NCBI GenBank assembly: GCA_965285935.1
Contig: OZ260664.1
Location: 41,850,001 to 41,914,000 of the forward strand
From: Ophelia neglecta
Lineage: Eukaryota
Length of the DNA stretch: 64,000 nucleotides
Direction of reading: 5' to 3'
In this document: positions 9,701-58,800 of the stretch, in pieces
Layout: each line of letters begins with the position of its first letter
How positions within the stretch are numbered: the first letter of the stretch is position 1
Made by a program: the position numbers and the translations under genes
Notes under the pieces: generated by a model
Database searches by the model: none
Seen by the model: the letters and a program-made list of their open reading frames with translations, nothing else
What the model was told of the DNA's origin: nothing

Positions 9701-10875
9701 GTTTACCGGCGGCAGCCGAATATTAATAATATTATTTTTATAGTCCCCTATGTCTAGTTGGGGGTATCCGTATAGCATTGTTAACTGAGAACAATGCACA
9801 ATCGTCGAAGGTTTGGGTTAGTTTTGCTAGGATTGGTTGAGTTGGCCAAGGATACGACAACGACACAAGATAGTGTTGTGTCAATACTCAGTAGCCCCGG
9901 GTCAGTAGCAAGGGCAATTAGGCCAACCTGTAGAGTAGTAAATACCAGTCGTGTGAGAAGTATGAGTCTATATAGATTTATGCTGTCGTCCCCTATTGCT
10001 GCAGGCTATATTTTAGTGGCCGTGTCACCGAGGCTTGGCTGGGGGTAGGATGCTGCGTGGTCCCACTGAGAGTAATAGGCCTACACCCTGTATATATTCG
10101 GTGGTATTCTGGCCTCCCTGCAGCAAAGCAATAAATATAATTGGTAAATATTACACACATGTGATCATACTGCGCATGACTTGCAATGCTCTATATGTAT
10201 ACATGTTTCCTTTGCTGTTTCCGGAAAACCTATGAAAGGTGACTGTCAATCAACAGACTTCTTTGTCTCCGTCAAATTCCGGGAGATTTCACGGTATTTC
10301 ATATGTAAAGGTCCTATAGATGTAAATTTTGTCTGATTGTTATCAGATCTTTTTTACAATGTGGATCTGTATTATAGATCCAAAATATGTATTGAAACTT
10401 ATTGTTAAGAATACTCATTTTAATTCATATTTGATTGTGTCTATATATATATCGGAGTTTTCTATCACGCCATTTGATTCCACATTTAGATTCTTTTTTG
10501 CACAATATAGCCTCTAATTGTTTCTCATTGTCCCTCAACCTGCCATTGACAATACCACGTCGTTATGAAAAATATTCCTCTTGTTGTAAACAAAATATGA
10601 TAGGCAAAGAAGACATGCATTTGTGTTTGGTAGCTGAATAGCAGTGATAATATACAATGTGTACTTTTTCTTGTTTTCCAGAAGCATAAATTTGAACAGG
10701 CGAAACTCGTTATTCACGACATGCAGCACATCATTTTGTAAAACAATATAATTCACATCTTCCTATACTATTGTGACATTTCAAATTAAGAACACTTATT
10801 TATTTTCAGGTATAGCAGAACTTTTTGTCATTTTGCTGACAATTTGCCAAACCAGCGTTGAGGCCTTAAGTGTCC
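6759..10875 (+). CDS. Signal-peptide exons (6759-6861, 10810-10875): MAARPALAAVWRLVTPHRDLQSSTNCHSTFGRTIG-IAELFVILLTICQTSVEA/LSV
   Basis: tgttcag|gATG...G|gtatgt (phase 1) joins ttttcag|GT...C|gtaagt (phase 1), which joins ttcag|CC at 12036 in frame. The peptide has a hydrophobic core and a V-E-A cleavage-type motif. Confidence 0.75.
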
Positions 10876-34800: not shown

Positions 34801-37800
34801 TTGTAGTGGAACAAATGCTACCCGTGTACACGTTTGGTAAAACCCACGTGATAGTACCCATCCCTGACAACGATAGATATGGCTACCAGATTGTCAGCCC
34901 CACTCCGGACGTCTCCGTATCAGGTAAAACCAGGTTTACAATCGCTCTTCTGTGTTCGGCGTGGCATGTCGCCCTGCCTTATAAGGAACACTGTTATTTT
35001 TGTTGCACGTCATTCCATTTGTTACAGTACTCTTTAATTTCCTTTGAATACATGATAAGTTATATGAAGATACGGATTATACTCACAGGGAGTTTCTCGG
35101 CGGCTATTGGTGAGGGTATTTGGCCGACCAATGCCCAACCGGCGGAGTCGAATCAACCGGTGTTTATAAGTGCAAGTAGTGGGGTTCTTGTGGCTCAATA
35201 CTCACTCAGTCAAACAGACAGAAGCAAAGGCTCCCCCACCTTTCTCTTGGTGCCATCGATTGATCAATACAGCAATATATACGTATTTTTCGTCCCATCG
35301 GCTGTTGTCAGCTACACAGCGTATGTTAACTTATGCTACTATAATCAACCCAAGAATAACATACCAGAAATTTATTTATAGGTAATTTACAATAAACGAA
35401 TCTTTAAAGTTCATAGTACATTTAGAAATGTTGTTGTATTTCTTTTAAGTATGCATGAATAACTGTGCACACGTCTTATTTGCTTTTGTCGATTTGATTA
35501 AAGGTACCTTATGTTGGCGATTGAGAATGACAAGAAATCCGAGTTGTATTTAGACAATGCACTTCTCAACATAGCTTGGATGGATGTGCCAAACTCCAAT
35601 CCTCCGATGGTTGCAGGTTGATTTTATTATTATACAGGACCTTAATTCTAAATGGGAATTATTTGTCATCCATATTTTACTCAAATTCTCATTGTTGGTA
35701 TTTATAAATATGCATGTACACATTATTTCTCTGAAACGAAATGATAATTGTCCCGTTAGAAAAAAACTAAGAGAAACATTAAGTCAATGAACCAAATGTT
35801 CGACACACTGATTATCTAAGGAAATGTGGGTGTTTATCTCGACAGGTCACATTCAGATCGCTAACAAGGCTTCCCCTTACCGTCTGCAGCACGTGGACGG
35901 AGTGACAAAGTTCGGAGCCTACATCTTCGCCCGAGACCAGTCGGGGACTCGGACCTGCTCCATCGCCTACCAGGCAGGCGGCTGTCTGAACGCTCTCACA
36001 CAGGTTGGCATTTAGTATTACAACCAACAGGGCACTACAGCGGAATTAGAACTTATGATAAGAAGCTGAAAGTACAAAGAAAATACATAATAAATTTAAA
36101 AAGTGATAACACTTGCAATGACAAGCAGTCAACGTCAACGAAGTGAGTTGATGCACAGAACAAACGAGTTAGTGATCACCTGAGGAACTGAATTTCTTGT
36201 TGCCACCAGAATTACATTGAAACTTCCTTGGAATAATCCTTTTACAGTTATTTATTTTTAACACAAGGGCTTCTTTCATTTTTCTTATATTTACACGTTT
36301 CATTCGCATCCCAAAGTGAGGTTGCGTTTCATTCCCCTTTCAACACAAAAGAATTATTAACACTCTTTTTTAAAACTTATTTCTCTTATAAAAAAAACCG
36401 TCAAGCCTAGCACAGTATAAAACGGACGAAGCTCTCAACAGTTTACTTCTGTGTTTAATGTCATGCAGTTTCGTAAAACTGATTTATTGGCGCAGATTCA
36501 AAATGTATGTATAGGCTAAACGGAACTTTGTGTATTGCAGCCACAACCACGGCTCACAACCACGACTATTGCACCGATAAACGGTAAGGTTGATCTAAGT
36601 GTTCATTTTGTCCGATATTACTTACAGCTTCACTATGTGGGTAACACCCTAAACCATATTAGGCATATGTTGATTGCTGCTAATAGTATATATGACATTG
36701 CTTCTGCAAACATTAAAAGCAGACTTTGGTCTTTTTGTAAATGTAATTTACATCTACATAATATACTTATCATTTATGAGCCTTTATTCCAGTATTAGGA
36801 AAAATACCATTCATATATATTAAGTTATGACGATTTTTTATAGCATATTAATGCATCGGTAAATCCAAAATTCGAGCGCAAATTCAACACTTTTAAACAG
36901 CAGGGTCCTTTTAGTTCGTAATCATTTCGTCTAATAATATTGTTTCCTTTTGATTGTAGACCAGTGTACTTTAGATTACGAAGGAGACGAGTTCATATTT
37001 ACGTTTTTGGCGAATTCCGGTGTTAGTGAGAATATGCGACTGTTAATAACCAATCCTTCAGCGACCATAGCCACGGTAACTGCCAAGGTTCCGGGTCAAC
37101 CCGACAGCAACTTTCTCGTCCAACCCCACTCTACCAGCTTCTTCAATATTGATGGAAACATCCAGGTGTGGTATCTCGTATTATTGAAACAAAGGTGTTA
37201 TCAAACCACTAAGTATACACACTGTGTCTATCCGGCCCGCTCAATTGTCAGAACATATATCATATAAAATAGTAGAATAATTAAATGTATAAGATTACGT
37301 GTTGTGTAATTATCTAGATTCGATGGTTTGTTTTATAAACTCATTTAGATGGTATATATTTCAAACGTAAGTGTACATATTATATATCCAAATGCCAACA
37401 ATCCAATTAATCTCAATTTAAGGCGGAGCGGTATACCGTGAGCAGGCGGGCTATCGAGGTGTTCTCTTCAGGGGCCAAAGTATCCATAGTCGCTATCAAC
37501 AAGCAGACTGGTGGCTGTGGGGGCTTCCAGGTATGTGGCCAGCTTTTAACCTACATTGATAAGAATTAAGACCATGGGTGGAATTTAAGTAGTTGGAGGT
37601 ATTAGCAAACAGGACTTAAAGTATTGGCCCACAGAAAAAAATGATTGAGGTCACAATTTGAGCGCCTTCAGCAGTCAACGAACATGTCATACGTCCGGCA
37701 AAAAGCGTACGGGGGTGTTCTATGAAAAAATCCCTAACAGTTAAATTGCTTCACGTGGTGGTACAATAAAAGTTAGAAAAAAGCGTTAATTAGGCAACTA

Positions 37801-40800
37801 TAAGGGAGCCTGCATTGTGCAAGACATACTCGAGTTTACGTGATTCAATGAGATAAGACTTGCCTTGTAATTAATAAAAACAAATCATATCTGATATCAC
37901 CGGAAATGAGATATAATCAACATTATCCATGATACGAGTCAGAACACAAACGAGTCAGTGGTCAACGTACGTTAAGATCAAATATGCCACATAGAATCTG
38001 TGACAGAAAAAGAGAATATAAGTTTATTTGTTCCGTTAAACATAAAACCAGAGAAGGCGTAAGAGGTCTTTACGTTTTAATTAGGACAATGATATAGTTT
38101 CTCCTTTGTAGCGCAATATAATGTTTAAGCTAAAAATTGAACCAGTTTCGCTGTTATGTTGACCGAACATATACAACATACGTTTTATACCAGTATAAAT
38201 TCAAAGCATATACAAATAATCCCTAGACAAGTATAAGCGGAATAGATCCCTTATACCCATTTCAGTAAAGTTTACGGGATAGGGGGCTTCCCAAAGCTGT
38301 ACGCCAACTGTGCAAATATATTTGGATTTTTATGAGACCCCGTCAAGTAATTCTGGCGAATTGGTTAATGTTAATTTCAATCGAAGACGTTAACTATTTG
38401 AGCAATGGGTGTTTCTTCTATTCCCTTTTCATGTTTTCCAGGTTCTCCCTAAGGAGTCCCTGGGTTACAGTTACTATGCCATGGCGGCCCGAGTTAGCGG
38501 ACCCAGCTTAGCGTCTACGAGTCTAGCTGTAGTAGCCACTGAAGACAACACAGATGTAACATTCCAGCTACGTCACAACACAGGGGTGCAGTTCTATATG
38601 AATAATATTCTTTACAAAGACGAGTCAGGCAGGGATATCTTGACTCTCAAACTACAGGCGGGAGATACTGTCCTTATTCAGTCGGCCTTCGGAGCCACTG
38701 ATATAACTGGCACAAAGGTCTACTCCCAAAAAAAGGTGAGTATAAATAATATAAAGATAAGGTAATTAATACGCTGCATCTTGTTACGCCATGACCGAGC
38801 TTTACTTACTGAGCAACATTATTTTCAAATACACTTTTTAAGTAATGAGTTTATAAGTTACTTACATCTGCTATTGAACTTATTTTTTTACTTGAAGGAT
38901 ATCATTGATATATTTTTGTATGAGGAATTTTACTAAAAATTTACAATACCTCCATGAACAGATAGCTGTGTTTGCCGGTGCTATGTCTATCGACTGGCAG
39001 AATGGGAACAGAGACCATATTGTTGAGCAGATGATGCCTGAACATGTGCTTGCTGATGAGTACATTCTGGTGCCCATACCGGGGCAGTCTAGTTACGGAT
39101 ATCTCATTATGGTAAGGCCAAGGTCATTGTAACCATTTTCACTTATTTTAAAAGAGTATGTGATTGACAGCTGAACATCTTGTGTGATCACCTTTAGTAT
39201 TTGTGCACAAAACATGCGCATACATCTGCGTAAAACACCTGTGGAAGCCACTTGCGACAGCCACCACATGTGACGTGATTGTTAGGTTATTGTCGTGGAA
39301 GTTTAAGTAACTAGACATACATGTATTAACATCTAAACCTGTCTACTACACAATTTGGATTCTGCCAGTGGCTTAGAATTCGCCACAAACAAAACATGCG
39401 TTTACAATAATATATTTTCGAGAGCCTGCCTCACACGCCCCATGCTTAATAATCTTTCAAGGCCACCGAAGATGGTACCAACCACAATCGTGCATTTGAC
39501 GTACTAGGAGCAGGAGATACGTTTCCCGAATCTGGCGTGCCCCTGCAAACAACTGGTCCTCTCTTTGTGCGCAGTCTCGGCAAAAAGCCAATCGTTGTTG
39601 CCCAGTACGTGCTTGGTATGAGTAGTAGTGTATCGGCCCCTAGCATGATTATGGTGCCAAGCATGAAGCAATGGAGGAACACCTACAGGTGAGCTTTAAT
39701 GGTTGACCACTTAAGGTGTGCACTAAATAAGTTGTGACCCAAATTTTATTTTAATATCATCCATTATTGTGATCTCAGAAAAACCGTAAATTCCATCACG
39801 CTGAAATACGGTTTTCAGGCAAGTTTGTGTACAACGGGTTACATATATTTTCAGCGTACTGTTTAATTTGAAAAAAAAATGTACTAAGGGTGTTTGAGTT
39901 GCCGAGTTCACTGTACAGCAGTAAATGTCAACACAATTTTACAACACAAAACCATCGTGCATGATATTTATTTTAAAGAAAAACACTTTCAAATAATTAT
40001 AACATAGAAACCTAAGGTACGGTGTACAATATATTTCACCATATTTTGTTTTTACAGACTTCAAAATGTTAAACTGGACAGCATTTGCAATGATTTTTAT
40101 ACGCGTCTAATAACGACATTATTTTTTTTTACAAATGACGCCAAGCATAACTAATTTTCATATTCATATTTATGGCGTTGATGTTACGCTTAATCAGAAC
40201 ATTTCAAGATATTTTTCTTTGACCATGCCCGTTGTCAGTGTTAACACCCGGTGGTGCATCCTATATGTATTCCATGGATGTATATACGATTTGTGTAAAT
40301 TTCGTCCGACATTGAAAAGTAAGAACGTATATCATGTGTATATTATGCGATCAAAAATTCTTGCTTGCACCCAGTGAAAGTGGGAAGTATTTATTTATCC
40401 TTTCAGTTTTTACGTTCCCGGTGAAGACTTCACGGAGACGTACCTTTTACTTGCAATTGAGACTGGCAAGGAAAACAACCTGATCCTAAATGGGAGCCAA
40501 CCTGTGTCGATCACATGGAGCACCGTAGGAATATTACTCTAGCCATTAACTAAATCCTTCAAAATGGCTGGCAATATATTGACTTAGTTCAGCTATTTTA
40601 CTTGTACATATTCGCCTTGCTCTGCGTTGCTAATTTTAACTTGGCTAAAATCTGATGTTCACATGTTGTGTATATTTTAAACATATAATCATCAGGTCAA
40701 TGAAATCTAAGGCTGCTTCTTTTGGCATACCATTTTCTGTTCTTTCGAATTCCAGTTTCGTGTTTTGCAGATATTAGAATTGACCAAACAGTAAAAAGCG

Positions 40801-43800
40801 AAAGCCAAGAAACGTTGTAATTCAATAGTCCTAGGCTAGATATATGGAATGCCTCCACCCCACCTCTGTTTGTAACAACCGTTCTTATTTTACACAAGGT
40901 ACCTGATGTAGCCAGCTACGTTGTTGGGAGTGTACGAGTCCCTGGGACCGGATACTGTAGAATACAGGTGTCTGACGGGACGACGCGCTTTGGAGCCTAC
41001 CTATACGGCGCCACGGCCTCCAGCGGCCGAGCCTGCTCGATCCTCACACAGATTGGCATGTGTCTCGACACCAGAAGAGCGGTAAGCTATACCTTATTGT
41101 CCTTGGTAATTTGTTTTTGAAAAAATCGAAGAAAAATGCGTCAATAAAGCCAATAGATGACTTGTATTAAGTGTGCCATTATCAATATGCAATACGTATA
41201 GAATAAGCGTCTTCATATTTTCCTCACAAAATTGAACAACACGCAAAACAATTTATCTGGTAAATAAAAAGGGCCTTGTAAAGTTTGAAAGTTAGAGAGC
41301 CGTTAGAAAGGTGCCTTTGAGAACAATATTATTCAACCTATCTAAACAAAGAGCTCCTCCTCCTCTCCCACCCCCACTACTCCCACACATACAAGAACAT
41401 ACAGCCCACTCAACTTACCAATACCTCTTCTTATTGCTATTTTCCCCTCCCTTGAATTGAATCAAGTGTGCGGATCGGCAATAACTAATTATGTGCTGAT
41501 ATGCACAGGGTCCCTGTTTTGTATTTGCATGACTATATCAATGTACCTATACATTATAAATTACGCCGTTACAGACAACCATTCCACCGGAACCACCAAC
41601 AACTAGGTCTCCAGAACCTATGCCAGGTAAACGATCAATGTTAGATATATGTTACAAAAATGTTAATGAGCAACGTGTACTGATTTATCAGTAGGGAGAA
41701 AATCTATCATCATTGTCTAACAACCGTTGAGAGGCTCTGAATGATAAACTGTATTCATCATATCTGTATATACATGTTTTTATTCTCCTTATGTAAATTA
41801 GCAGAGTACGATATAAAATACAAGTATATAGAAAAATAATGATATAGGTAAATATGATATTGATAGTAACGTTCAGAGACACAGTCTTTTACGATAAGCG
41901 CATTAATTTTGGTGAATATGATATACTCTGTGTTTCCCCTTGGCAGGAACACGATGTCGTAAGGACTACATAGGTCGGGAGTTTGCCCTTGTGTTCACTC
42001 AAGCGAATGGCAATGACATGGACCTGGAGGTGTACGCCGCCTCCGACATCAACATCAACATAGAAATCAAGGTCAGGCGTCTCTCAAACTATTGTCAGCA
42101 CTGTCACAAATACAGAAACAAATTGCCATTAATTTATCAAAATGATTAGAACATCTTTAAGATATTATTAAACCGCAAAGTAAAATGTGTGCCATTAATT
42201 AAACATGATGATTACAAAAAAAGGTTCACTGTCATCATTATCTTTATTTATAATAAGACACAGTTCAATGTAACTATGATTTATGACCCAGTTGTCATAT
42301 TGGTAGTCTGTGTATAACGTGGGACAACAAAGTTATGTAGCGAACCATCTGTTTATTGTTCATGAATACACGTTGTACATAATGTAGCGACGTGGAAATA
42401 GCGCCTTTTCTGTAAGTGACAAAAGTTCGGCTTCCGAAGCACAATGCAGAAGTTTCGATCATAGCTCTGTGGTCCCAAGTTAGACATAGCCTTCCAATAT
42501 GACATTAGCCCCCACCCTATTAACTAACTCCCGATATCTCGGTATGTAGGCAACACAGAGCGATAGGGGTCGGAGGGGGCATGGATTTGGTGGTACTCGG
42601 ATCGAAATAAAACTCGGCTGTCGCCTTGGTTTATCTCCTCCAGTACCACCAGAAACCCGTGCTATAACTAATAACTATTTATCTTAGCTAATTTCAATGT
42701 AGATGTTGGACATGTGGTCATGCTTGCCCCCTCCCATTATAGGTGAGCGCGCCTACCTACCAGAACCCAGGAGACGTGGAACAAACGGTAACGCTGACTC
42801 GGAACCAAAAACTGTTAATCACTCTGCCGGCAGCCCTGCGGTTAACCAGCGCGGGTGTAGAGAAGAAAGGCATCAAGATCGAGGCCAGCGAGGATATTGT
42901 CGTCTTCGCATTAAACAGAATTACTGGAAATTGTGGCGGGTAAGAGTAGATTGAATTCGTTTGCGATCATTATTATTTGTGTAAAGAAAGCACGGTAATG
43001 AAAATAATTTATATTCGTGTCTCCTAAAGGATGTTCCCTTTTATATCCAGGGGAGGGTGTATGTGCTTTTCTTCTGTTAACTGCTAAAATAGGACTCTGG
43101 AATTTCAACATGCATAACTCTGAAACTACTAGTTAACAGCGACTCGTTTGGTTTGAGATAAAAATAGCCTAGCATGGGAAAAACATAAGTAAAAACTACA
43201 TCCCCGTCCCCGACTATACTGGAACGCCCTAAACTAGGCCTACCATTCAAACACATGAAACAAATGCTATTACAACAAGAAAGCGGCTAGACGCCTGCTA
43301 GAACCAGACAAGTCGCGGCCTGACTCCACCATGCGTATACGGTCGGTTTGATAAAACATACAAGGGGCTTGGCTGCACACACTGACATTTTCCTCATCGA
43401 TTGTCATCCTCTGAATCGTGACGCACGTAAAACATATGTGACATTGTTAGAACCATACAGCTATCTCTCAGCAGATGTTATTTTTACTGTTTATACTCCT
43501 CCTTCGAGGATTTTGCAGACTCCTGTATATTATGTAAAGTTCATTCTTATCTCCCATCCTACACTACAGTTACATGGCCATCCCTACTGATGCCTTGGAG
43601 TCGGTTTATTTTGTTACGAGTCGTATGCCCGAGGCCGTCCCGGCCTCCCCAGCTAAGATCAGCGTCATTGCCGTGGCAGCAGTCGATCCCGGGACATCAA
43701 TTACCTTCATTTTCCAAGGAAACGGAGCAGTGCGCTGGCAGGGGATCACGTACGTAGTAAAGTTAAGGCAAATGGCGGCCAAACATATACATGATTGCAA

Positions 43801-46800
43801 GGCTCTATCAATGCAGTGTTAAGAGCACTGAGTTTTGATGCTTTAGAAATATTCCCAATTATATATCTTGTTAAAATACGCTCTTTTAACTGGTTAACGT
43901 ATAAATTTCGAATAACAGTGGAATTATCACAATACTTTTGCACGCTAATTTACTCAGAAATTGGATTGGTAGTTATAAGAAATGTCCATATAACATTTAA
44001 CACGTTCCGTTGTAACTTTACACATTCAAATTTTGTCAGAGTTTGGGCAAATTCCTATATTAAACCTCCAGGTGATTTCTTTTTGGCAATATTTAAACCC
44101 TAATTACCTACTTTGCAAAACACCTACGTATCCCTCTCATGAGAATATGTAATTCTGTACATTAGGCGATTGTCACATTAGGTATCATCCAAGGTTATAT
44201 TATATTAAATAATCAATAAACATTCATATATATATAAACATTATTACATACATAAATGAGCGCATCCATGCTGCCTGAGTAGAACTTGCCGGAGCCAATG
44301 TTCCAGCTTTATAAAGTCTCTGTTGTATATGCGACAGACGTCTTCTTCTTAAATCTGCCGGTTCTATCCTTAGAAGACGTCCCCGCTTATACCCTCCGTC
44401 TTTTAGGTAAATAGTACTATTATATTTTAGTATATTTTACTTATTTTTTTAAGTTATAATTCCGGTCGGATGCTGATCCTTCCTCCTATCAATGCCTACG
44501 AGACCGTAGAACTACATGGCCTGACTCAGGGAGTGGACCTATCCGGAACCAAAATAACTGCTACAGGCCGCATTGCCGTGTGGACCGGAAACATCCTAAC
44601 AGACGTGGGCCCAGGGCAGCTCCTGGACCACACCGTGGAACAGCTGCCGCCTGTCACCACCTTCGGTCGAGAGTTCTATGTGGCTCCTGCCCCGGGAGAT
44701 ACCTCCATGGCAGGCGTTACCGTCAACATCTTGTCTGGACAGGTAGGAAAACCAATGTCTTCACTCAGCGTCAGGGGCAATCAACAAAAGCTTGATTTTT
44801 GGTTGTTTGCGGGCCTTAAGGCCACAGTATGCTGATAACTTCGGCTCGATTTAATGCAGAAGTTTTGATCTCCGAGTTAAAATGTCTGTCGGGTATCCAG
44901 TCCTGATTTACGTAGTAATTATGCTTTTGATTATCTTTTAACTATAAAATAAAAACATGAAAGGACATCAGGAGAAGGTCAGAGGGTATTGATGATCGTT
45001 TGCGGAACTAAAGGAATATGTATTTGAAATTTAATTTGATAATTAAATGTTTTAAGTAACAACTAACAAATAGCTTACTGATACAAATGAACAAATTCAT
45101 AGCCTATTTAGGTAAAAACGTTTTTTCCCAATAAAATGATATGCCATATAGGTCTATATGATGAATTCTATTGGTAAAAAATGTTTAATTACGTTATGCG
45201 AACACATTTGATTAGCAACGTTAGAGTAACGGTGGAGTTTAGACTGTAACCGGCTAGTATACTCTCCTCAGATGTTGTGGCAATATGGCACACTAAGAAA
45301 TCCATACAAAATCCCTTTCTAAGCGTTTCCGGTATCTCTTTCAGGATAGTAACCAAATAACGGCCAAATCAGCTTCCAGTGAGTATCTGACTTCAGCCAT
45401 TTCCCTTGCTGGGGAGAGTGTGGAATTTGGCGCTACGGATGGTCAGTTCGTCCGTATTGTCACCAGCGCCCCGGCGATGGTTACTGCTTACCCTAGGGCC
45501 GGTTCCCCTGGAGACCTCAACAAACCAGCACAGATCTTAATATCTCCCAGGCAACAATGGATGAGCACCTACACGTTTGTTGTTCCGGAAAACAAAGCCG
45601 GGTGGGTGATGAAGATGTTTCTTTCTATCTTTCCATGCAGTTGAACGCTTATTTAAAGACGACCTTTTTTTTTATCAAATTAAACTTTATTAAAAGTACA
45701 TGCTGATTTATGCTTACATAATAATAAGTAACTACATGTACATAATAATAATGGATTTTCCCAGGAAAAGGCGGCATAAGTCTTTTGGTACCATTATTAC
45801 TTTCGTTCAAACTTATTTATTGAAGAGTATAAGCCCCTATACGGTTACAATGTTACGTGGCTTTATTATAAGAAGCATTCAAATCTTAGATCGCCGAGTT
45901 TCACTAACTACCTGATGTTGATTTCGGACACAAACTCGGTGTCTGAGTTAAGAATTAATGGTAATCCGGTGGAAACAACGGGCTGGACGACAATTGTTGA
46001 CTCATCTCTCTCTGGAAAAACAATTGAAGTCGGCGGCGGATTTAATCAGGTATGCATCTATATGATATAAAGCGTCTTCTAGTCTGGTACAAACATGGTA
46101 TATTTTTTTTATAATTAAGTGAATGCATAACTTTGTTTTTTTTAGTTGGCTTTCCTGTCAATTCATACTGATTTGCTATATTTCTTCAGTTGCGGTTTCT
46201 TTATTATTCTCATTTATTCAACATGTTATGATCTGGGTCGGTTCCATCAAAGACATTTCAAATAGACATATGTTAAATGTTAATTTCTACAAGCAACGAT
46301 TGAAGCATTCATTTTACTCCAAAATACGAGGAAGCGTTAAATCGGATAACATCTCTGAGCCAAGGTTCCTTTTAACATTAAAGGTTTGGCATCAGAATGT
46401 GGGTCAGGTGTTTGGAGCCACGGTGTACGGACGTTCTCCTTCCGGTTGCGCGTATGGTTATCCTGCAGGCATGTGCCTGAAAACCATTGCTTCGGTGAGT
46501 CTCTTTCTTTATTCTCATGTACGCATCTTAATAATTACCGGGAGGATAAAAACACACTTTTCTTTACCCCTTTTACATATATTACAAGATATACATCTTC
46601 TCACGTCAATTAGAAAAGAGAAACTTTGATTCTATTTACATTTTACAATTAAACTTTAATATAGGCCTGTTCAAAAAAGGATTCTGAGGCTAAAAAAGCG
46701 TACATATTTGCTTCACTTGTGCCTTCTTGAAATTAGTAAATATGATATTGTGCCACGGAGTTTCAAAGGTCTCGACCTCTCTCTCTCTCTTCGTTTTGAA

Positions 46801-49800
46801 GCAACCAGAAGGTGGCTTAGTCTGCCCGAACCCTTCCATCACTGAGAAAATTATTGACCCAACGACCTGTTCTTCTTATTACGTGTGCGCCTTTGGACGG
46901 CTGCTCAAGCAAGATTGCCCATCAACGTATGAGTTTAGCCCTGTAGTGCGCACTTGTGTTCCTGCTCAGCAAGCCTTCTGTCAACCTGACTGTAAGTACT
47001 GGGCAGCTTGTTCTGTTTCTTTAGTCCAATAAATCATGACAGGGGACTGGGTGTTGATTAAGTTGACTACTTAGGCCACCGTACCATAACGATATTCAGA
47101 AATGCTTTAATGTCATCACTTTTTACTAAGATATACAATTATTAATGCACTTGAACAGATTCAGATTGCTAGTTATCTCTTCATTTCATGGACAATACAG
47201 CAGCTGAAAATTTGCCATCACTTGGCGCACATAATGCCCCTATAGTCTCATGAGAACTCTTTTTCTCGACTATAGTCTTTTCACTAACGACAAAAATGTC
47301 AACATCCGGTAATGATAGCAGCACACTATTCAGCTACAGCAACAAAAAATTATATCATATAAGTGCCACCTGTTTTATATGATAACCTCAAATAAAACAC
47401 AATACTGTAACATATCTATGGTGTTCAGGAATATTACTGTTCACAAATTGAAACCTGTATTTCAGATAACATAAAAAGAGGCTTCGTAACTGGCTAGCCA
47501 ATTATAACCGATTATATAATTATGACTCGTTTCAAAACAGCAAATAGCAATTTAATGCTTACTCCTTGGTTGGCAGTTCTCCTATACGGCAATATAGATT
47601 TGTTATCATGTCCAAGTGTAATCACATCGATAAGTAATACTTCTTCTTCCTCTATTTAAGCAAGTAAGCACAAGTGGGAAGTATAATTCCATTGTTTTTT
47701 CATTATGTTTGGTTCAAGCATTCAGTAGCATCGCTGCCTAGAAGGGTGCACAACTCTTTCAATACGCTGCTGTCCAATGAACATTATAATGCAGAATGTT
47801 CCGATTTCCTGCCCAATGTTCATATGTCAACAACGCCTACACGACACATTAACGCATTATATTTCCAGTGCCTGAGGGTTCTGAAGAAGGGAGACGTTAC
47901 CACATCGCATTGCCCATAACAGAATCAGGAGCAGAATTGAGTTTCCTCACTTATAGTGATACCCCAGTTCAAGTTCAGTTCACCACCAGTTTCGGAGTCA
48001 CTCTACCACCCCTAACTCTTCAAAGGGGAGTGATGACCGATCCCATTCTCATCCCGGCCACCTACACCGTCCCAACCAATGATTTTGCTGTAAACGGAGG
48101 TTTGCACCTCTCTGAAAACTTAACAGAAATGCACACTTTAATTTTAGATTAATAGCATGATTTAAAGTCAGCAATGTTAATGTAATAAAATGTGTGCTTT
48201 ACATGAATAGTATTCATCTTATCTACTCGTACATCTTGCACATTTATAATTACTGGACTATTCTAGATTAAGGATTTGGTTTTGTATGACAGGTATTCAC
48301 TCCCTTTTTCTGATGATCGTTTTCTTTTAGTTGAGGTCCTGGCATCAGCCGATGTGGTTGCCTATGTCACGGAGCGGGGGATAGGATCTTGCTCGGATTA
48401 CAAGCCCTTGCCATTCTTTTTTTGGCGTCCGACATTTTACGTCTTATCGCCAATGCCAGAGGGCACATCCCGAACAGAGGTAATCATGACTGGACAAAAG
48501 AACTCTTCATTTGCCGAGGTTATACTTCGTTCGACTGCGAGTGTCAACTTCCAAGGAAATCAGTACAACTCTGGCTCGAGGTTGTTTATCCCTGTAAGTA
48601 TTTTTATTCTCCTGTCGTTGTCAATTAAATTCGGTATTAATTCTATCAACTGTTCATGGTTTTATTTTTACTCTTAATTCAAGACGTTAAGCACCATGTA
48701 CGTGGGCATAATTGTTTTTTCATGACTGAGACAGATTTTTGCTTCGCTTTCACATTGCAGCTTTATTCCTTTACGCACACTCTTTTTGCCCGCATACTCT
48801 ATTCTAATGGAGACATGTCCGGCACCTACATATTTGGCGTAGCGGACGCCTTGATCACGGTGGTAGTGTCAGCAACTAAGACTACTATTGGAGGCAACTC
48901 AGTCACCGATGAAGCCATTTCCTCTATGATACCAGTGGACAGTTGGAGCAGAAATTTTACCATACCATCTATTCCAGGAAGTAGCGAGGGCTATTACATC
49001 AAAGTAAGAATGAGTAGGCTTTATGTGTAGGCTGAACGTAAACCGGCGTTATGATACAGACTATTTTGTCAAATACGATCATCAGTCGGTACCTGTCCAA
49101 AAACTTTGAAAATTTTACTACGTGCATGTGTTAGGTATAAAACTTTCCTCTACTGCTTATTGTTGGTTTTTTCAGATTATTTCAAACAGGGCATTGACTT
49201 TGAAAAATAGTGCTAACAACCAAGAATATACAACATCAGCCGGAGTACCCTTGCAAATCGACATGAGCAATATGCCCACACGTCTTACCGCCTCTGAACC
49301 GATGATGGTAATGCAACTCATCAAGAGCCCCTTCACATCACCAATGACAGCAGCCCCGTCTTCCAACATGATACCGGGAGAGAGCATGTTCGTTCACTTT
49401 TCTTTTTATTCTAACTCATTAATACATACACTGATGCAAGTGTCTACGTGCAACTGACAGTCGCTTATTGGAATCTGCATTTATTTACATGTTCAAATTT
49501 CAAATATGGGTGGCATGATACTTGCAAGACGAGTTTATTATTACAGAAGTGTATTTGTAAGTTACATTCATAAGTAATGTCCTGCGTTACTAAAGCCATC
49601 TGTGTACCCCTTCTTTGTCAAGGATATGCAGGATTTTAAATTATATCACCTAAACCTTTTCATCAATAAAATGGGTTAAGTTTTGTCACTAATGACCCTC
49701 CCTCGGTAATCCACAATAAGTTTGTATGTAATTCCCATCGTATACAGAAAATACAAACGGTAGTTAAAATGGGGCGTGTTTATTATGGACTTACAGGTGG

Positions 49801-52800
49801 TTTGATGACTATGTATTCAACTCGCATACATCTACCACAGCATACACCAACTATGTGCTTATAGCAATCCAATGGAACAAAGTGGTTGGCCTTCAACTAG
49901 ATGTGCAACAGGTACCATACCGAACTTTATGTAACACATAGCTTTATATATTTATAACCCATTATATGTGACATCTTCAGCCATTTCTAGTTTACTGATA
50001 AAACATGTCCTCTGTAATTGACAAGGATTTAAGTAAATTTGTTTAGTTTCCAAAGTTGCTTCTTTGAAAATGCTCAAACCTCATCCAATACGTTAACACT
50101 CAGATTTCAAGCGGAGAAAGCCACCCTTTTATGTTATGTGGCCGTACACGTATCATAACATTTAACTATTTCTTCATTTACAAGCTTGACGCTAATAACT
50201 GGATACTCCTGAATAACACTGACCCTCAGATGGCTGTCCGAAATATCAGGCTTGCTGATGGACCACATAGGTAAATATATCAGAGGATTGTGGATTTGCA
50301 GCAGACAGCTTCTGGTGATTTCAGACCAGATAAATGGACTTATAGTGATTCACCGACTTTGCTTTGTCTGTCGGATATCATACACTCCCGTTTACTTTCA
50401 AGCGATATTCCTAAATAGCTTAACTTATATGTTTTATATGCATAATTGGCATGTCCTCAATAAAGCCACGCTCTTGTCGTGTACTTGTATGTATGTATCC
50501 CATCAAGATATTGCATTCACTTGTATTATGGATTATATTGGATCTTTGATTATTAACAGATTGAAGCACTTAACCAGCGAGCCTTTCATGGCCTGGCAGT
50601 ACCATATTGTCACAGGCGGCTGTAATAAGATAAGTCCCATCAACATGAAGCACCCATTTGCGGTATGTCAGCTTGTTCATCATACAAAAAAACGGAACAA
50701 TAATAAAAAAGAAGATATGTGCAATAAGTGCCTATAATTTAAATATCATTACCTTTTTAGAAAAATTACCCATGCAAATTCAATAAGTAAATTTTAAAAT
50801 CCGTAGAATGCACTTATGCTAGTCATTGTTTTTTCTCCAAATAGCGTAATAGCAGTATTACGACCCAGACACCCCCAGGAGTGGCTGGTACCCCTGGACT
50901 GGGGGTTACCGGAGGCGCCGGGTTCACCTCAGGAGTTGGGGTCACTGCAGGAATTGGGGGCACGCAAGGAGTTGGGCCTAACATTGGGGGCACTCCAGGA
51001 ATAGGGGGCGCTCCAGGAATAGGGGCAACAGGTGAAGTTTTAAAACCATTGTTTCAATGCCAATTTTACCTGACTAAGCTGTGTCAGTCGGGCGTCATGT
51101 TTCTTGCCCGAGTCCTCAGGAACATGGATCATAGTTTTTGGATTCTTATACACGGGTCCATTGTCCCTAACTATTTAACACGCGATATAACAGTTGCTTT
51201 CGATTTTCTGTATTTTCTGAGCATGATAGGGAAAATAGTGCGGGGAACAGGATAATCTAAAGGACATAGCTGAGCATTTCTAAAAAGTTAAAATCCTTTG
51301 TCGATGGTAGTAACTCTTGTTCTTCTAGTGGGGATGAATACTTTGAGAATCTCCTACTGTCAAGACGGCTTCATATTTTAATAGGTCGTTCGAGTATGAA
51401 GCGATCTCCTTACCGAAATAATATGATGATGGCAGTGTGAAAATCTTATTTTGATGAGACACATGGTATTGTAATCGATGATGAGACCATTCTGCTGCAT
51501 ATTTTTTGTGCGAGCGACCTGACTTTGAAGGCTGATTCTGTCGGAGGCCTTCAAACTCAGGTTAATGGCCTTTAAGTTTTCTGTGCCAACAAATGAAAGT
51601 TGATGAGCTGAAAACAAATTACATAAAATTTGGTAAGCCTGATGTTTGGACTTAATTAAGTTGGTAAGCATTTTCATTAGGAAACTTCACAAGGATCCTA
51701 GAAAAACTACACTTGACAAGAGATCAAAGCTTTCTTAAGTCTGTAAGTTCGCCATCTTCACTCTTATTTTATCTCGATCTCTACCATTTCTGTTATGATA
51801 TGGTATGTCTAAAAATGGCGAAGGGTATAGATACTACCTGTAGTAGTAACGAGTAGTATGTGTGTCTTTTAAACCATACTGCATCAGCAGTTGCATGTTT
51901 GACTGCTGTCAATGGGCACAGCGACTCGACCAGCCAGTAATTGGAGACATCTTCTTATAAAACATGACCCCCAAATATTAACATATATTGCAGAGTGGTC
52001 GATTTTTTATAATAGTGTCATTTTGCATTGAAAAGTAGTCAACATTTTGCCATGATGTGAGTAGACAGATAGTAGAAACGAGTCCGTGGCCAACGTAAGA
52101 AGGAATTGAGATATACCCTTGCAGCGTGTCTAGTGGACTAAGCTTACTTATAATTGTGAAAGGTGCACTATTAATAGCTTTGTCCGAATAGACACAAGAC
52201 AAGAGAAGGATTAAAAGTTCGTTAAGGAGGAAAATGGTGTTACTCCACCTAGCTATGGCGTTATCTTACTACATATGTAAAGTGAACCGGTCCCGCTTCT
52301 ATTGTGACTACACATGTGCATCTACAACGCATGTTGTTATAACAGGTGAAGCAGATACGCGTGGTCTCTATCCTTAGTATGAGCGGAATAGATCATTCCG
52401 CGTCAAAATGTTTTACTGCGTACGTGTTAAGATAATGGCAGCTTGAAGCTAAACATACAGAGTTTAAAGGACAGTCATTGGTTGCATATTGACTCTCATT
52501 TCCCAAATGGAATCCTTTATAGGATATCATAGGTCCTCGAGCTATGCGTTATACTACGATAAACTGCTGGAATATTATGCAAATTTGGTAAAGGCACGTT
52601 TAGGGCTACTGCTTAAATCATGACAGTACTTAACTTATGCGGACAGCAAGCGTCTTTTGCAACAATCAGACAGAATGGCACATGATTTTACAACAGTTAA
52701 GCGTCTTGAAGTATTCACCCCGTATTCTAGGAAAATAGGTATATTGCAATTAAAGAATGGGAAGTGTATTACTGGAAATATAATCTCATTCGGCATAGTA

Positions 52801-55800
52801 TTTAAATACGTGAACTAACATGTAAATGTCGATATTTGTCTTTTAAGAGAAATATACATGTATCGAATACAGTAACGAAGACGATCTTGCGGATTCCTTC
52901 TGCACATTGAGCAGGACCTTAGGTGAAACTATATGATGTATATGTTTACGTCCCACAGGTGGTGCATCATTTACCGGAATAGCCGGAACTACAACACCCA
53001 CTACGATTTCCACAAGCGCCGCAGCAATTATCCCGCCAGTCGGTACGTCATTATTATGTCATTAGAATTAGAACACATATTCTTTGAATAACCTGTGCTA
53101 TTTGGTCTTTCACCTTATGCTTTATAAAGATTACGTCAATTATTAAAACGAATTGTCTTGTTAAGTTTTATATGTTACTTTTTAATGAGAAAAGAGGAAA
53201 GAACATTTCCACCGTGTTTTCCAATTTTATTATATGATATTTGGCAACGTTGCTTCGATCATTGTGGTGTGTCCAGCCGAGTATTGCGTACTTAAAATGA
53301 TTTTCCTTTCATGTTCAACTTGTACATTTTGTAACTATTTCAATACCTAGATCCAAACGATAGATCGACATACGGCACGCGTTTCGTTCTGCCAGTTTCG
53401 GACACTACCAGCACAAGTCCATTGGTGGTATACGTAACAAATCCTGGAAATCAAAACTACATTGTTAAACTTTCACCAGCAAATACTGAAACCAACTTCC
53501 AATGGACCCCTTTCACTACCACCGTAAGTTTCGTTTGGCATTTATGCTCAAATGTCCCTAAAAGTAGGTTTCCCCTTTAGAAAATATGAGTCTACTCACA
53601 AAAAAAAGGTAAAACCTTTAGAATACAAGGGTTGTATTGTTTCGTTTAGTTGCATTACGTTGTTCTTTATTTTTAATCAAAACAGATTCCAGCAGGAACG
53701 TCTATGGCAGTAACCTTACCCCCAAACGCGCGGCGAACTGACATTTTGGTAAACAATCCATTCCTTGTTTAGTTTTGAAACAAATACATAGGGCATGAGC
53801 TTCACGTTTACATATGTGTTATATTTAATTTTCAGTGATAGTTTGAGAAATTAGTCACTATCGATCGTCGTTTTGTGCACTTTTTCCACATGAATAACAT
53901 TCTTTTTATTAAAAGAATGTAACACTTTGTAGGTTGAGTCTGGGTTTCCTATGCTAGCTCAGTTGTATGATCCAGGTTCGTGTGCCATATACACCGCCCT
54001 GCCAGTATCCGCCGTCAATCCTGGCATGGGACAAACACAGGTAAAAACGTCGCAAATATGTAAACACTTCGGTGTCCTGTTTACTCGAAAACTTCACAAT
54101 TTAATATCGGACTTCGAACAGAAGTAGCAATCTTACAAGAACATATATAACATATCACGCGCATTGAAATAAATCATTTCGTCGGTTCATCTTCTAATAA
54201 AGCGTAGTTTGCTTTTAATGCCTTTTTTTCTATACTGACATTACCTTTTTTGATTTATCAGGAGTACCTAGTTACCGGTTACAAACCAGCATTAGGGTCC
54301 AAATCAGTAATAATAGTATCAGCGACAAGTCCTACTGGCAGAACCTATTTTTCGATTTTATTTAAAACTCCAAATGCGAATGACGTAATCACAGTTGTTA
54401 GCACTTCCCTGGATCTAAGCCCAGATATGTGAGTACCCCATTAGTTCTAAAACGACCGTTTTACTACAAGGCATGAGTTAGTGTGCCTTAATTATCATAT
54501 ATACACCACGATAATATCCTTGCATTCATCATGTTAAACATTGGTTATTTTGTTATGTTATGAACCAACTAATATAAACATTCTAGAGAATATGCAGTGG
54601 ATGTAACCGTCACAGAGCCACTTCAAAGATTTGAGTCAACCGCTGATTTGACCGGCACACTGATTACGAACACCATACAACCCGGCGGAGTTCCCATCGT
54701 AGTAACCGTGGCCAACACAGGGCGCACCGCGGTGAGATAATTATTAAACAAACATTACTACGTGTATGGTGTAAGATTCTAGAAAAGTATTTGGTGTTGA
54801 CAGGAAGAACAGTGCACAATCAGCTAAAATGGCATACCAAAAACATGATATTTTTATGATATTTATGCTTTTTTCTGTGAACTTCTTAAGTTTGATTAAT
54901 TCAAAATTTAATAAAATATTATATTATATAATAAATATTTACAATTTCGTTATAACTATGATTAAAGTAATGGTGCATTGTTAAAATTAAGCTACATTTA
55001 TTCTTCTCGTGTTCAACTTTGTATATCATTGCTGGTATTTAAAATTAATGACCAAAATTTCCTGGTATAGATACGAAAAACATATAAGGTAGTTTGCGCC
55101 GGGGCGTTTGACTCATTTCAAATTATTACTTAGGGTTCCCTAGAGCAAAATTATAAGTAGACCAACAATATGTGTATGGAACAAAGCATCCCAACCATTA
55201 CATCTTTGTTATTTGTGATCAGACGTTAGGTTCAACATCGACAGATACAATGACCATTCAGCTGATGCCAGTAATTAATCTTGGCTCTAATTATGTGATA
55301 GCACCAATACCTGAAGTTCCAAACTATGAGGTAAATTTATTTGTATTGATTTATTGTACCTGCTTACGCGCGGTTTCATGGTGTAAATGATCAACTTAAC
55401 CGAAAAGGAAGTTCGTTACTGAGCCAGTAAAAAGGATATAATTTATATCCAATAGTTCAACTTATTAGAGTCATAGATATCTGCAACATTTTAGCCTCGT
55501 TGGTATTTCTTTCTTAAATAATGTTGTTCATTATTGATACATATTTGTTGCTTTGTTTTCTCATACAGAGTTGTTTGTAACGAAAAACATTTGCCTTCTA
55601 GGTCAAAGTATTAAACAGCCAAAGTGACACTGAGGTTATTTACACTACGAGGGCAGACGGCACATCAGAAACTGTGTCTACAACAATTGTTTTAAGTAAC
55701 CAATATACTTATGATATAAGGACCTTTACCGGACCTGTACGGATTTACTCATCTAAACCCATTCAGGTAATAACACGCCGTTGCAAACTATTCGCCTATT

Positions 55801-58800
55801 ATATTATTCACGGCTGTGATTTTATTCGATCAAACTTGCAGGTATTCCCACCCATTTCCTTATTGTTTTCGATTCTAGGTTGTTCAGTATTCTGTCAGTC
55901 AAATTCAATCACGGGCCACTGCCATTTTGATTCCTGCAGTTGAGCAATGGCTTGACGCTTACACAGTCCCTGTACCAGGAGATTCCTTGTTCAGCAGGTA
56001 TATTAACAGAATGTTCTGCTTCACTACGTACTGATACATGTGAAGTCTTCACGCAATCAATAAATTAGTCAAGATTATCTCTCCGCTTGTTGTTGCCATC
56101 GATGAAATTACTGGTATATCATAACACTACACTTTTTGTTAATGTCCCGTTTTACCATTAAGTGATATATTAATTTTATTGCTCGTATTTGGTATCGCAT
56201 TCTTGAATGATATGTGTTCAGAGATATCTTACTGATTCTTTCAATCGCAACAAGCGAGCCATAATGACTTAATGGCGGTTAAGATAATGACAGGTTAAAG
56301 TCTCAATAAATGTTCCAAAATAGTTTTTCTCTTATTCTACATAGATTCGTCCACATATTTGCCCCTGTTGGAAAAGAGAGGACCGTTCTTGTTAATGGTA
56401 GACCCGTTGACCTGTTCCAGACCACAAATAACAAATGGGAGATCATACCGGGATCAAACCCAGCAATCTCCTATATTAGCCTGCGATATGTCACGGTTAG
56501 AACTTATTTGTTATTACCTTTATTTTCCTTTTGTGGAAGTAATTGGTATTTATTGCACTTCTTTTATATATCAACTGTATTTTTAAGGATACCATACATG
56601 TTAACACCACGGTTGGAAACCTGGCCATTGGAGTAATTATAAATGGCCATAAACCTGCTGATTGCTCATATGGATTTCCAGCAGGGTACTCGGCTAAAGG
56701 GGTAAGTAGTAACTGTAAGATCATGGCGTGTCATTTCTATCCCTATCTTAAGCTTATATCTATAGTAAAATGTCCCTGTCTGACTAAGCATATTCAGTTA
56801 GTTTATGTGTTGGGATTTTAACCATAATTATCTAAATTCTTGCAACATCCGAGTTCAATCTTTACATTCTGGGTGTGTGTTTTTTAGGAGATATTCGATG
56901 TTGCCCTTCCGCCATCTACATCAACCACCTCTGGTCCAATCATTGACCCATTTCCTTCAGGTAATACTGCTGTCTCTTTGATAAACAAACTTCAACCAAT
57001 TTTTGTTCAACCCAGCAATGCTTAAAATGATTTTTTGGGTATTTTGTCTTCGTTTAAGTGCAACTGCTTTAATATTCTGTATGCAGTATAAATAACAACG
57101 TTGTTTTGTAAATACCTTTGGAAAAAAGGTGAATTGATTAAGTACGCCGTCTTAGGGGAAAAGCACTTTGTCTTTATATTATTTCTCTAATCGTAAACGC
57201 TCAAGTTGTCATCTCATAACTCCACAATCGCGAGGGGCAATCAAGGTCCCTTAATAAAATCTGCCAGTGAGCATGTGCTTTCAGCTAAAACCTGATTTTT
57301 ATAAGTTTTACTAAAAGGACATGTTCTTTGTCAGGTGTATAGAGCATCAATGAAGTGGCTTTGGAACTATGATCATGTGTGGAAAAATGTTATTAGGAAA
57401 TTGCACAGACCTTTAGTATGTGATAATGTTAAAATTAACTACCTGAAAAAACCGGTTTTTATTTATTCTTATGTATCATCAATTCTATTTTCCTTGTTAG
57501 CCTCTTGTGAGCAGTCAAACATGGGCAAGGAGTTTATAATTGGATTTGCGCAGAATCCAGTGCAAAACATCAAACTACAAGTATATCCTGCATCCGTAGA
57601 AGCTAAGTTCATAACTGTTAACGTTGAAATACCCAACTCATATCCTAAGGTCGAAGAAACCGTCCAAATTACAGGTGGTCAGGTAAATAAAGTGTTATGA
57701 TTATTTCACATTTAGATACTATTCCTAGTATGCCATATATCAGCCAAAGTATATTTTAACCAAGTAATAAAATATATTTTCACATACCTTTTGATAGGTA
57801 GCCAAGTTTGAATTCCCAGCTGATCTTACCGTCAATGGCATCGGCAGAAGTTCCAATGTGGCTGTTAAGATTCACGCATCTGCAAACATTGGGCTTTTTG
57901 CAGTCAGTCAAGTAAGAATAGCCAGCCGAGCTTGAATCCTTACTTCGACCATGTTTATTCACTGCCCTATGCTATCTTGATATAAAAATTAAAAGAAATG
58001 TATGCAACATGGCAACAAAACGGGTTCTTTTCACTAAACACTACCGAAAGACCATCTCTTTCAACAAAAGTAGAGATTTTCTTCATGATCATTTATGAAC
58101 ACGAAATATACATGGGGTGGGTGCGGGCGTGCTTGTATAGATATTGATATTAAAAAGTATATCAACATTTTCTACCGCCTATGTAGCAAACGATGTTTGC
58201 TTTTTAAGTACCTACCACAGTCCATTATCAATAAATCTTCATTGTATACAGGGAATGGGATCATGCGATGGGTATATGGCATATCCAGTTTTCACCTTGG
58301 GGCAGGCAGCAGCAGGATACACTTACTATACCCTCAGTCATTTCTCCATCAACTCCGGACTAAGTCAGGTGACATTTGTCTCTCCGTACAGCGGCACCAA
58401 TGTTGACATCACTCTCTCCCGTACCGCCGCCGCTATGAATTTCCCAGGGGATGTGGTCAGTATCTTCGTAATATATGTTTCATGTTGGATAAACCCTTCT
58501 GTTCAAGATTTTTATCATATTAACACCAGTCATTTAACTTACAAATGTATTTTTCATTAATTAAAACAGTCAATCTACAGTGGAGGAAGCGTCAAGAAAT
58601 ATATCAATTTGCCCGCTTATGAAGTGGTACAGCTACAGAATCGAGGCGACCTCTCCGGCACCCGTCTGCTGTCAAACTACCCCATTGCAGTTGTGGTCGG
58701 TAACACAAATACTCGGTTGCCTGGAAGCCCGTCTACCTCAGACTCCAGTCACCTCGCTGGTATGGTCCCTCCCCTTCAACTGCTAGGGCGCAACCATTTC

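Follow-up and report, generated by a model that had tools for sequence, protein, structure and literature searches.

How does a single chitin-binding domain come to lie in the middle of a giant, mucus-type repeat protein, and does it clip that protein to chitin? The question is raised by a 64,000-nucleotide (nt) stretch of the Ophelia neglecta genome, the window of this analysis (GenBank assembly GCA_965285935.1, contig OZ260664.1, positions 41,850,001 to 41,914,000 of the forward strand), which carries a gene predicted to encode 19 tandem FCGBP_N (IgGFc_binding, PF17517) repeats, with one CBM14 (peritrophin-A) exon between repeats 9 and 10. Which domain this is, where it lies, in which frame it is read and that it is conserved are direct observations. 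The insertion is real, old and selected; it probably followed a textbook route of exon shuffling to which one step was added, and its host protein is an unusual one. The whole account, according to which a CBM14 domain kept in the paralogues entered as a class 1-1 module, was then fused with a linker and acts as a weak mid-chain chitin anchor, has in our judgement about an even chance of being correct.

As read from the sequence, the exon is bounded by an AG acceptor at 46800-46801 and a GTAAGT donor after 46991, and holds 63 codons plus one base. It and its immediate neighbours, all on the plus strand, are as follows (a slash in AG/G marks the putative former junction).

46802..46991, plus strand: CBM14 (peritrophin-A) exon, 190 nt, phase 0 to 1, 63 amino acids (aa), six Cys
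46802..46811, plus strand: first 10 nt of the CBM14 exon, probable remnant of a linker microexon ending AG/G, in 3/3 paralogues
46812..46991, plus strand: putative original class 1-1 CBM14 module, 180 nt, 60 codons, as suggested by the scar and the phases in the genome
46384..46494, plus strand: last exon of repeat 9, phase-0 end, 111 nt in all three paralogues
47869..48099, plus strand: first exon of repeat 10, phase-1 start, register equal to that of the other repeats

The initial annotation had placed a CBM14 exon here, between repeats 9 and 10. The exon is borne out by the splice signals, by the six Cys in its 63-residue translation and by a Pfam CBM_14 (PF01607) search, which that annotation had proposed as a check (39.5 bits, cut-off 22.1, E 6.4e-10); the placement is borne out by the gene model, in which the repeat count proved right. 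The copies of the domain in the same slot of this gene and two paralogues score 39.5, 37.3 and 43.6 bits against the curated cut-off of 22.1, and C8, C23, C29, C39, C52 and C60 are invariant in all three, as are a Tyr-Tyr and a Phe. An AlphaFold model built from the three sequences (predicted local distance difference test, pLDDT, 74.6) was compared with known structures by Foldseek, and the first 11 rows were all CBM14 structures with probability 1.00 and a best E of 2e-3, no row reaching E 1e-3 or better. The structures matched were CHIT1, Der p 23 (second), EHEP (fifth), tachycitin, Avr4 and Blo t 12, with a root-mean-square deviation (rmsd) of 1.4 A to the CHIT1 chitin-binding domain (ChBD) and to Der p 23; a profile search of solved structures gave seven matches, all CBM14 proteins. 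By these models the exon encodes a distorted beta-sandwich fold of the CBM14 type. Contigs of one sample (three runs, possibly of the source sample, and unspliced through the introns) span the exon, and none of the 40 listed differences from them (of 68) lies within it, although this is not independent support.

The exon structure of the host gene was predicted from splice signals and paralogue homology, with the help of a spliced aligner and of a model of splice sites and coding sequence that had these loci as its training set; several ab initio or aligner exons shorter than 40 nt and without paralogue support were removed by hand before exons were counted. The modelled gene has 151 exons, all with AG and GT boundaries, and a single terminal stop at G000:C7:41,935,724, 21.7 kb beyond the window. 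The 8,578-aa product contains 19 FCGBP_N repeats, each of which matches the domain (Pfam was scanned in pieces rather than over the whole spliced protein), and the CBM14 domain lies at 47% of the chain length. The parts of the gene that fall in the window are these.

10810..64000 and on past the window, plus strand: host gene, predicted 8,578 aa counted from 12036
10810..10875, plus strand: probable signal-peptide exon, phase 1-1, hydrophobic core, read by eye; initiator exon not found
12036-13680, 15906-18480, 19101-22062 and 22317-25768, plus strand: FCGBP_N repeats 1, 2, 3 and 4
26398-29764, 30779-32872, 33201-36003 and 36960-41081, plus strand: FCGBP_N repeats 5, 6, 7 and 8
41947..46494, plus strand: FCGBP_N repeat 9 (IgGFc_binding, PF17517)
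47869..50662, plus strand: FCGBP_N repeat 10, a divergent type without the N-terminal Cys pair
53351-56701, 57501-60704, 61066-63106 and from 63551, plus strand: FCGBP_N repeats 11, 12, 13 and 14

In the paralogues a 54-nt hydrophobic 1-1 exon occupies the place matching 10810..10875. The most hydrophobic 19-residue segment (hydropathy 1.8-1.9) falls within a repeat, no hydrophobic tail is present at the C-terminus, and the host protein is likely secreted, without a membrane tail. It would form a beads-on-a-string rod of 19 all-beta domains joined by short Pro/Thr hinges. A single repeat of paralogue C gave a confident all-beta model with pLDDT 93.8, for which Foldseek returned no match with a template modelling score above 0.16; in a wide structure search only the first 115 or so residues were matched (1nc7, Z 10.6, rmsd 4.3, 107 aligned). 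No solved relative of the FCGBP_N repeat was found by sequence search or as a whole fold, and the partial match to 1nc7 demonstrates neither a function nor a new fold. The GDPH motif does not occur in the three modelled proteins, and the repeats mostly have 2-5 Cys, which leaves no room for Cys-rich VWD-C8-TIL units. Nor is the protein like a gel-forming mucin, as its linkers are 3-90 aa long and the chain ends with repeat 19. Repeats 10-19 are of two alternating subtypes (10, 11, 13, 16 and 18 versus 12, 14, 15, 17 and 19), the former mostly without the N-terminal Cys pair; relatives of repeat 10 (P0003 and P0004) lie on two other contigs, each called as a single open frame.

A search of the assembly (762 Mb) with the CBM14 domain gave three matches, namely this gene, gene B at C7:65.93-65.98 Mb (CBM14 exon at G000:C7:65957677-65957866) and gene C at C8:15.995-16.049 Mb (CBM14 exon at C8:16022946-16023135). 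In genes B and C all 19 repeats recur (8,648 and 8,632 aa respectively, 67 exons each), and both carry a 190-nt 0-to-1 CBM14 exon in slot 9/10, as here. Each repeat clusters with the same-numbered repeats of both paralogues in an 87-row quick tree, so the 19-repeat plan predates the duplications. The CBM14 copies are 44-59% identical (this gene 51% to B and 44% to C), close to the whole-protein identities of 46% and 45%. In the CBM14 exon the proportion of synonymous differences (pS) is 0.81-0.89, that is, saturated, while nonsynonymous divergence (dN) is 0.48-0.50 against each paralogue, similar to the 0.53-0.54 of the whole protein; the exon is therefore under selection, because the protein is conserved while synonymous sites are saturated. 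Skipping it would bring in a stop 15 codons later. Given this conservation the exon is almost surely translated, and its inclusion in transcripts is supported indirectly by the frame requirement and by conservation in three paralogues.

The paralogues differ markedly in their introns, of which this gene has 150 and each paralogue 66; 105 occur only here and 24 of those of B are absent here, which points to extensive intron gain or loss that ran both ways, although those at the repeat ends have been kept. Two further genes encode FCGBP_N repeats. In paralogue D (G000:C8:12,980,762-13,000,179, L062-L064) repeats 1-5 are nearly identical to those of gene C and are followed by a linker, IPT/TIG-like domains (Pfam TIG E 0.011, below the cut-off) and a predicted membrane helix, and from its appearance it would be a chimera of recent origin that yields a membrane-anchored protein. 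Gene F (G000:C7:65,883,242-65,903,162, L055-L057), 26 kb upstream of paralogue B, shows seven FCGBP_N repeats over this span, with long, mucin-like linkers rich in Ser, Pro, Val and Thr between them. Both domain families are expanded in this genome, with at least 126 PF17517 exon matches at about 25 loci and at least 131 CBM14 matches.

The 18 inter-repeat slots of the modelled protein all open with a 0-to-1 exon, in 17 cases a linker of 10-187 nt and in slot 9/10 the CBM14 exon, whose upstream neighbour (46384-46494) ends in phase 0 and whose downstream neighbour (from 47869) starts in phase 1. The linkers in the window are the following.

14580-14607, 18703-18721, 22176-22206 and 26239-26257, plus strand: 0-to-1 linker microexons, mostly Pro/Thr-rich
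30533-30572, 32991-33027, 36541-36583 and 41575-41626, plus strand: 0-to-1 linker microexons, mostly Pro/Thr-rich
50845-51031 (0-1, Gly-rich) and 52959-53042 (1-1), plus strand: linkers of slot 10/11
56888-56960, 60853-60874 and 63304-63370, plus strand: later linkers

Six of the eight linkers that precede the CBM14 exon have the same or similar length in both paralogues, in which the slot 2/3 linker is longer and the slot 5/6 linker is fused to the next repeat. At slot 10/11 the paralogues have one shorter exon instead of the Gly-rich 0-1 exon and the extra 1-1 exon. The initial annotation was right that the boundaries of the CBM14 exon, phase 0 to 1, equal those of the linker microexons, but shuffling cannot be argued from this match, since the flanking phase-0 donor and phase-1 acceptor leave no choice other than a 0-to-1 exon. 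Its further claim that the domain replaces the linker stands in so far as the slot has one 0-1 exon and no separate linker; in the flanking introns no linker microexon common to the three paralogues was found, and the chance 0-1 candidates present there are not shared between them. It has to be amended in that a 10-nt remnant of the linker is probably still in place.

Only symmetrical modules can be shuffled without a frameshift, and in animals these are of class 1-1 (PMC8001218). A 0-1 exon is asymmetric and could therefore not have been shuffled alone. We called splice sites with our own position-weight model at 66 of the 128 other genomic CBM14 matches. The 60 acceptors called comprise 55 in phase 1, three in phase 0, all with low scores (2.4-3.3), and two in phase 2; with one exon taken per cluster (46 clusters), 35 of 40 called acceptors are in phase 1, as against 50 phase-1 starts among 151 in the present gene (P 1e-12). 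Donors are in phase 1 in 39 of 50 called cases, and 24 of the 34 clusters with both ends called are 1-1. The CBM14 family of this genome thus begins in phase 1, whereas the exon of slot 9/10 begins in phase 0. Like the class 1-1 modules known from shuffling, which have phase-1 introns on both sides, it encodes an extracellular, mainly-beta domain; unlike them it is itself 0-1, with only its 3' intron in phase 1 and the 5' intron apparently lost.

Traces of the missing intron may be preserved. The commonest acceptor of the other CBM14 exons lies 11 nt before Cys1 (17/55), and all three slot exons have an AG/G 11 nt before Cys1, a mark found in 13 of 399 comparable conserved Gly columns. At the 105 intron sites unique to this gene, AG/G occurs 17 times in B and 15 times in C against a background of about 2%, so these marks go with intron sites in this gene family. 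At slots 5/6, 15/16 and 16/17 both paralogues lack the phase-1 intron that follows the linker, so that fusion of linker to domain does occur in the family; this intron also accepts foreign modules, since paralogue D joins its IPT-like tail through a 0-1 linker. The starting state would have been repeat 9, a phase-0 intron, the linker, a phase-1 intron and repeat 10. A class 1-1 CBM14 exon would have entered the phase-1 intron behind the linker, after which the first of the two phase-1 introns would have been lost and the CBM14 exon fused with a 10-nt remnant of the linker; an acceptor shift of 10 nt with loss of the linker exon would lead to an equivalent, indistinguishable end state. We infer that insertion followed by fusion is the probable route. 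Exon shuffling, as the initial annotation had proposed, is accordingly likely, because CBM14 exons elsewhere are 1-1 modules, although the phase match that was offered for it is not valid evidence. No donor could be named among the genomic CBM14 sequences, BLAST giving 23-48% identity over short stretches.

Whether the domain still grips chitin is a separate matter. In CHIT1 no residue affects chitin binding more strongly than the exposed Trp465, and the affinity of the domain for chitotriose is about 10 mM (PMC4844120, PMC5459812). Critical residues differ between chitin-binding CBM14s (PMC10619976), and Avr4 uses other residues and tolerates change at the position aligned with Trp465 (PMC6128652). 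Chitin or other N-acetylglucosamine (GlcNAc) polymers, bound through a non-canonical face, would be the most likely single ligand, although we hold this tentatively and put it somewhat below even. The domain would then be a single weak mid-chain clip to a chitin-containing matrix on a string of 19 beta domains, and it may anchor only weakly, because the usual chitin-gripping Trp is missing. Mid-chain tethering to chitin, which the initial annotation had drawn from the presence of the domain, is a little less probable than one would expect from the name of the domain. Because FCGBP_N is reported to be lost in arthropods (PMC4948705), a cuticle or peritrophic matrix of the insect type appears an unlikely setting.

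Several observations weigh against this account of origin and function. All exon calls are predictions, and the control of the splice caller, in which 126 of 133 modelled acceptors of this gene were recovered, is partly circular. The AG/G scar is weak (about 3%) and may represent perhaps two independent lineages rather than three, and no orthologue in the pre-insertion state was found. A weak branch separates repeats 1-9 from repeats 10-19, a pattern compatible with fusion of two genes at the slot. The Trp465 equivalent, two residues after Cys5, is Pro, Ala and Ala in the three copies, and the first-strand aromatic is replaced by Ile in all of them; moreover, one CBM14 copy would be a poor anchor for so large a protein, because CHIT1 binds at about 10 mM. 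Finally, repeat 1 looks damaged, so that this gene copy may be damaged.

12235..12719, plus strand: apparent lesion in repeat 1, about 73 paralogue residues without a match

Homologous sequence resumes there at 12674, upstream of the only acceptor (12720), an in-frame splice still being possible, and the loss may be a deletion, an assembly error or a haplotype variant. A short local duplication lies near 12300-12380 within the same interval.

The alternative that fares best keeps the same origin and supposes that chitin binding has been lost, the domain, much as in EHEP or Der p 23, now binding a protein or a polyphenol or else being a disulfide-locked spacer. We give it only slightly less than an even chance. 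The loss of the Trp465 equivalent in 3/3 copies speaks for it, as do EHEP and Der p 23 themselves, which share the fold, are among the nearest structural matches given above and are reported not to bind chitin (PMC10619976); in our alignments the EHEP domains likewise have no aromatic two places after Cys5. On the other hand, CBM14s use different faces, as Avr4 illustrates (PMC6128652), and the aromatic at the Trp465 position is present in only 28 of 57 parsed copies among the other CBM14s of this genome (66 examined, by a rough pattern match), so that about half of these also do without it. The proposal also splits into several ligands, none with direct support.

A different origin would be a fusion of two arrays, the CBM14 domain having stood either at the N-terminus of an ancestral gene for repeats 10-19 or at the end of one for repeats 1-9, rather than having entered an array that was already complete. 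On a tree built from paralogue C and gene F, a single change suffices to divide repeats 1-9 from 10-19, in 78% of 200 bootstrap trees, whereas shuffled orders average 6.5 changes with none of 500 as low as one; repeats 10-19 alternate two subtypes related to the repeats of gene F, and paralogue D is an example of an array that was cut and rejoined at a linker. However, the 9/10 branch has a support of 45/81 and a split at 8/9 is better supported (93/80), the quick tree giving a Shimodaira-Hasegawa approximate likelihood ratio test (SH-aLRT) value of 95 for 8/9 and placing repeat 9 with the C-terminal half. Local tandem duplication would cluster neighbours without any fusion, and no stand-alone half with a CBM14 domain was seen among the IgGFc stretches scanned: 20 other IgGFc-bearing 10-kb stretches and the genes D, E and F held no CBM14, and 66 other CBM14 loci had no IgGFc match within 1-1.5 kb. 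We consider such a fusion unlikely, though by no means negligible.

The route by insertion and fusion also leaves room for an improbable further twist, namely that an alternative 5' splice site still marks the place where the intron was lost, and that its use drops the CBM14 domain. An AG/GT, a potential internal phase-1 donor, lies 10 nt into the CBM14 exon in this gene and in C, with GC in B, and the internal donor scores 3.9 against 4.0 for the terminal one in this gene and 4.6 against 2.2 in gene C. Splicing at the internal donor would leave a plain three-residue linker in frame with repeat 10, with CBM14 removed. Against this, such a site arises by chance in about 3% of comparable cases (13/399), and intron loss alone leaves the same mark. 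If true, one gene would yield chitin-anchored and free forms of the 19-domain FCGBP_N rod, and a splice switch would determine the attachment of a giant mucus-type protein to its chitin scaffold.

The literal model of the initial annotation, in which a ready-made 0-1 CBM14 exon replaced a 0-1 linker exon as a unit, is very unlikely. It would account for a slot that holds one 0-1 exon and no separate linker, and 3/60 acceptor calls elsewhere are in phase 0, but those three are the low-scoring ones and 55/60 are in phase 1, asymmetric exons are not shuffled units (PMC8001218) and the AG/G at -11 points to a composite exon. Least credible of all is that the exon is an unspliced relic or the gene of the window a pseudogene, for although the terminal donors are weak (4.0, 1.5 and 2.2 against a median of 5.5), repeat 1 carries a lesion, the splicing of CBM14 is predicted and introns contain chance alternative 0-1 exons, the open frame and six Cys are kept across saturated synonymous divergence in three genes, the alternative candidates are not common to the paralogues and the other modelled exons are free of stops.

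Among known systems the closest are other FCGBP_N proteins, in which the domain is typically N-terminal and which in invertebrates lack VWD and have varied partner domains (Lang et al. 2016, PMC4948705). The present protein resembles them in having the domain in every repeat, predicted secretion and no VWD, and differs in its 19 copies in tandem, with no VWD-C8-TIL seen and no GDPH. One Aplysia californica protein with FCGBP_N and CBM_14 is listed among 974 in Fig. S5 of that study; its label follows XP_005105061.1, and the text layout could shift the label to a neighbouring entry (PMC4948705). The nearest tandem case that we found is a 4,948-aa Chromosphaera protein with 10 FCGBP_N matches and no CBM14. 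Vertebrate-type FCGBP consists of multiple VWD-C8-TIL units with GDPH cleavage sites (for the role of GDPH, PMC8267560), whereas no such unit was seen in the host protein, and the VWD assemblies, long PTS domain and cystine knot of gel-forming mucins are likewise not found in it. With the CHIT1 ChBD, tachycitin, Avr4, Der p 23 and EHEP the domain shares the six-Cys spacing and the small beta-sandwich; it differs in that neither the Trp465 position nor the first strand carries an aromatic, and in being a single mid-chain copy. The mucin Ci-GFM1 of Ciona carries a chitin-binding domain in a chitin gut membrane, where it is predicted to line the mesh, and together with VCBP-C it is alike in being a large mosaic mucus-type or immune protein with a chitin-binding domain on a chitin mesh (PMC6109156). 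These proteins are, however, built on VWD/C8/TIL or Ig-V rather than FCGBP_N, and in Ciona location, and for VCBP-C binding, are demonstrated (PMC6109156), whereas the present host protein is a predicted one. Molluscan shell proteins named 'IgGFc-binding protein' with CBM14 have no FCGBP_N in the available domain tables (PMC4023409, PMC6003135) and share the label and CBM14 only, the label being a similarity name that does not show kinship, and limpet mucus proteins so labelled are VWD proteins (PMC7333891).

The exon was found in two paralogues, and in searches for relatives beyond this genome, a check which the initial annotation had also suggested, no orthologue with the repeat 9-CBM14-repeat 10 junction was retrieved. 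A search with repeat 2 gave none; of 335 candidates checked with a CBM14 profile built on three sequences, one was a multi-CBM14 protein, and that was unrelated; a repeat-10 profile gave 534 matches, of which the best 150 had no CBM14 by a local profile (33 were also scanned with Pfam); a long-protein search gave eight matches, none with PF01607; Joint Genome Institute (JGI) metagenomes held no relative with the junction; and an Atlas search gave family-level matches only. These searches miss proteins longer than 2,000 or 8,659 aa and split gene calls, and hence do not show absence.

Around these genes a few other elements were observed. An intron of repeat 12 holds an open frame at 59149-59640 of the window, which we take to resemble the end of a reverse transcriptase of the long interspersed nuclear element (LINE) type. 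Upstream of gene F, an exon at G000:C7:65,871,859-65,872,836 (L054) matches Pfam MFS_1 (E 1e-20), the major facilitator superfamily of transporters, and downstream of paralogue C, at G000:C8:16,055,263-16,058,935 (L070), fragments resemble, by eye, a decayed LINE element.

The insertion is ordinary domain shuffling, and a pairing of FCGBP_N with CBM14 has already been listed once, in Aplysia (PMC4948705). In the literature searched, which included few subscription papers, we found no earlier report of a CBM14 in the middle of a long FCGBP_N array, here one of 19 repeats, and no account of CBM14 intron phases. The locus provides a clean record of a 1-1 module captured by a linker exon. FCGBP_N is a widespread, mucus-linked domain without a known function, and three proteins of about 8,600 aa that consist of nearly nothing else, with one central CBM14 each, offer a handle on its location and ligand, the more so as the intronless repeats of the paralogues and the 63-aa CBM14 domain are easy to express.

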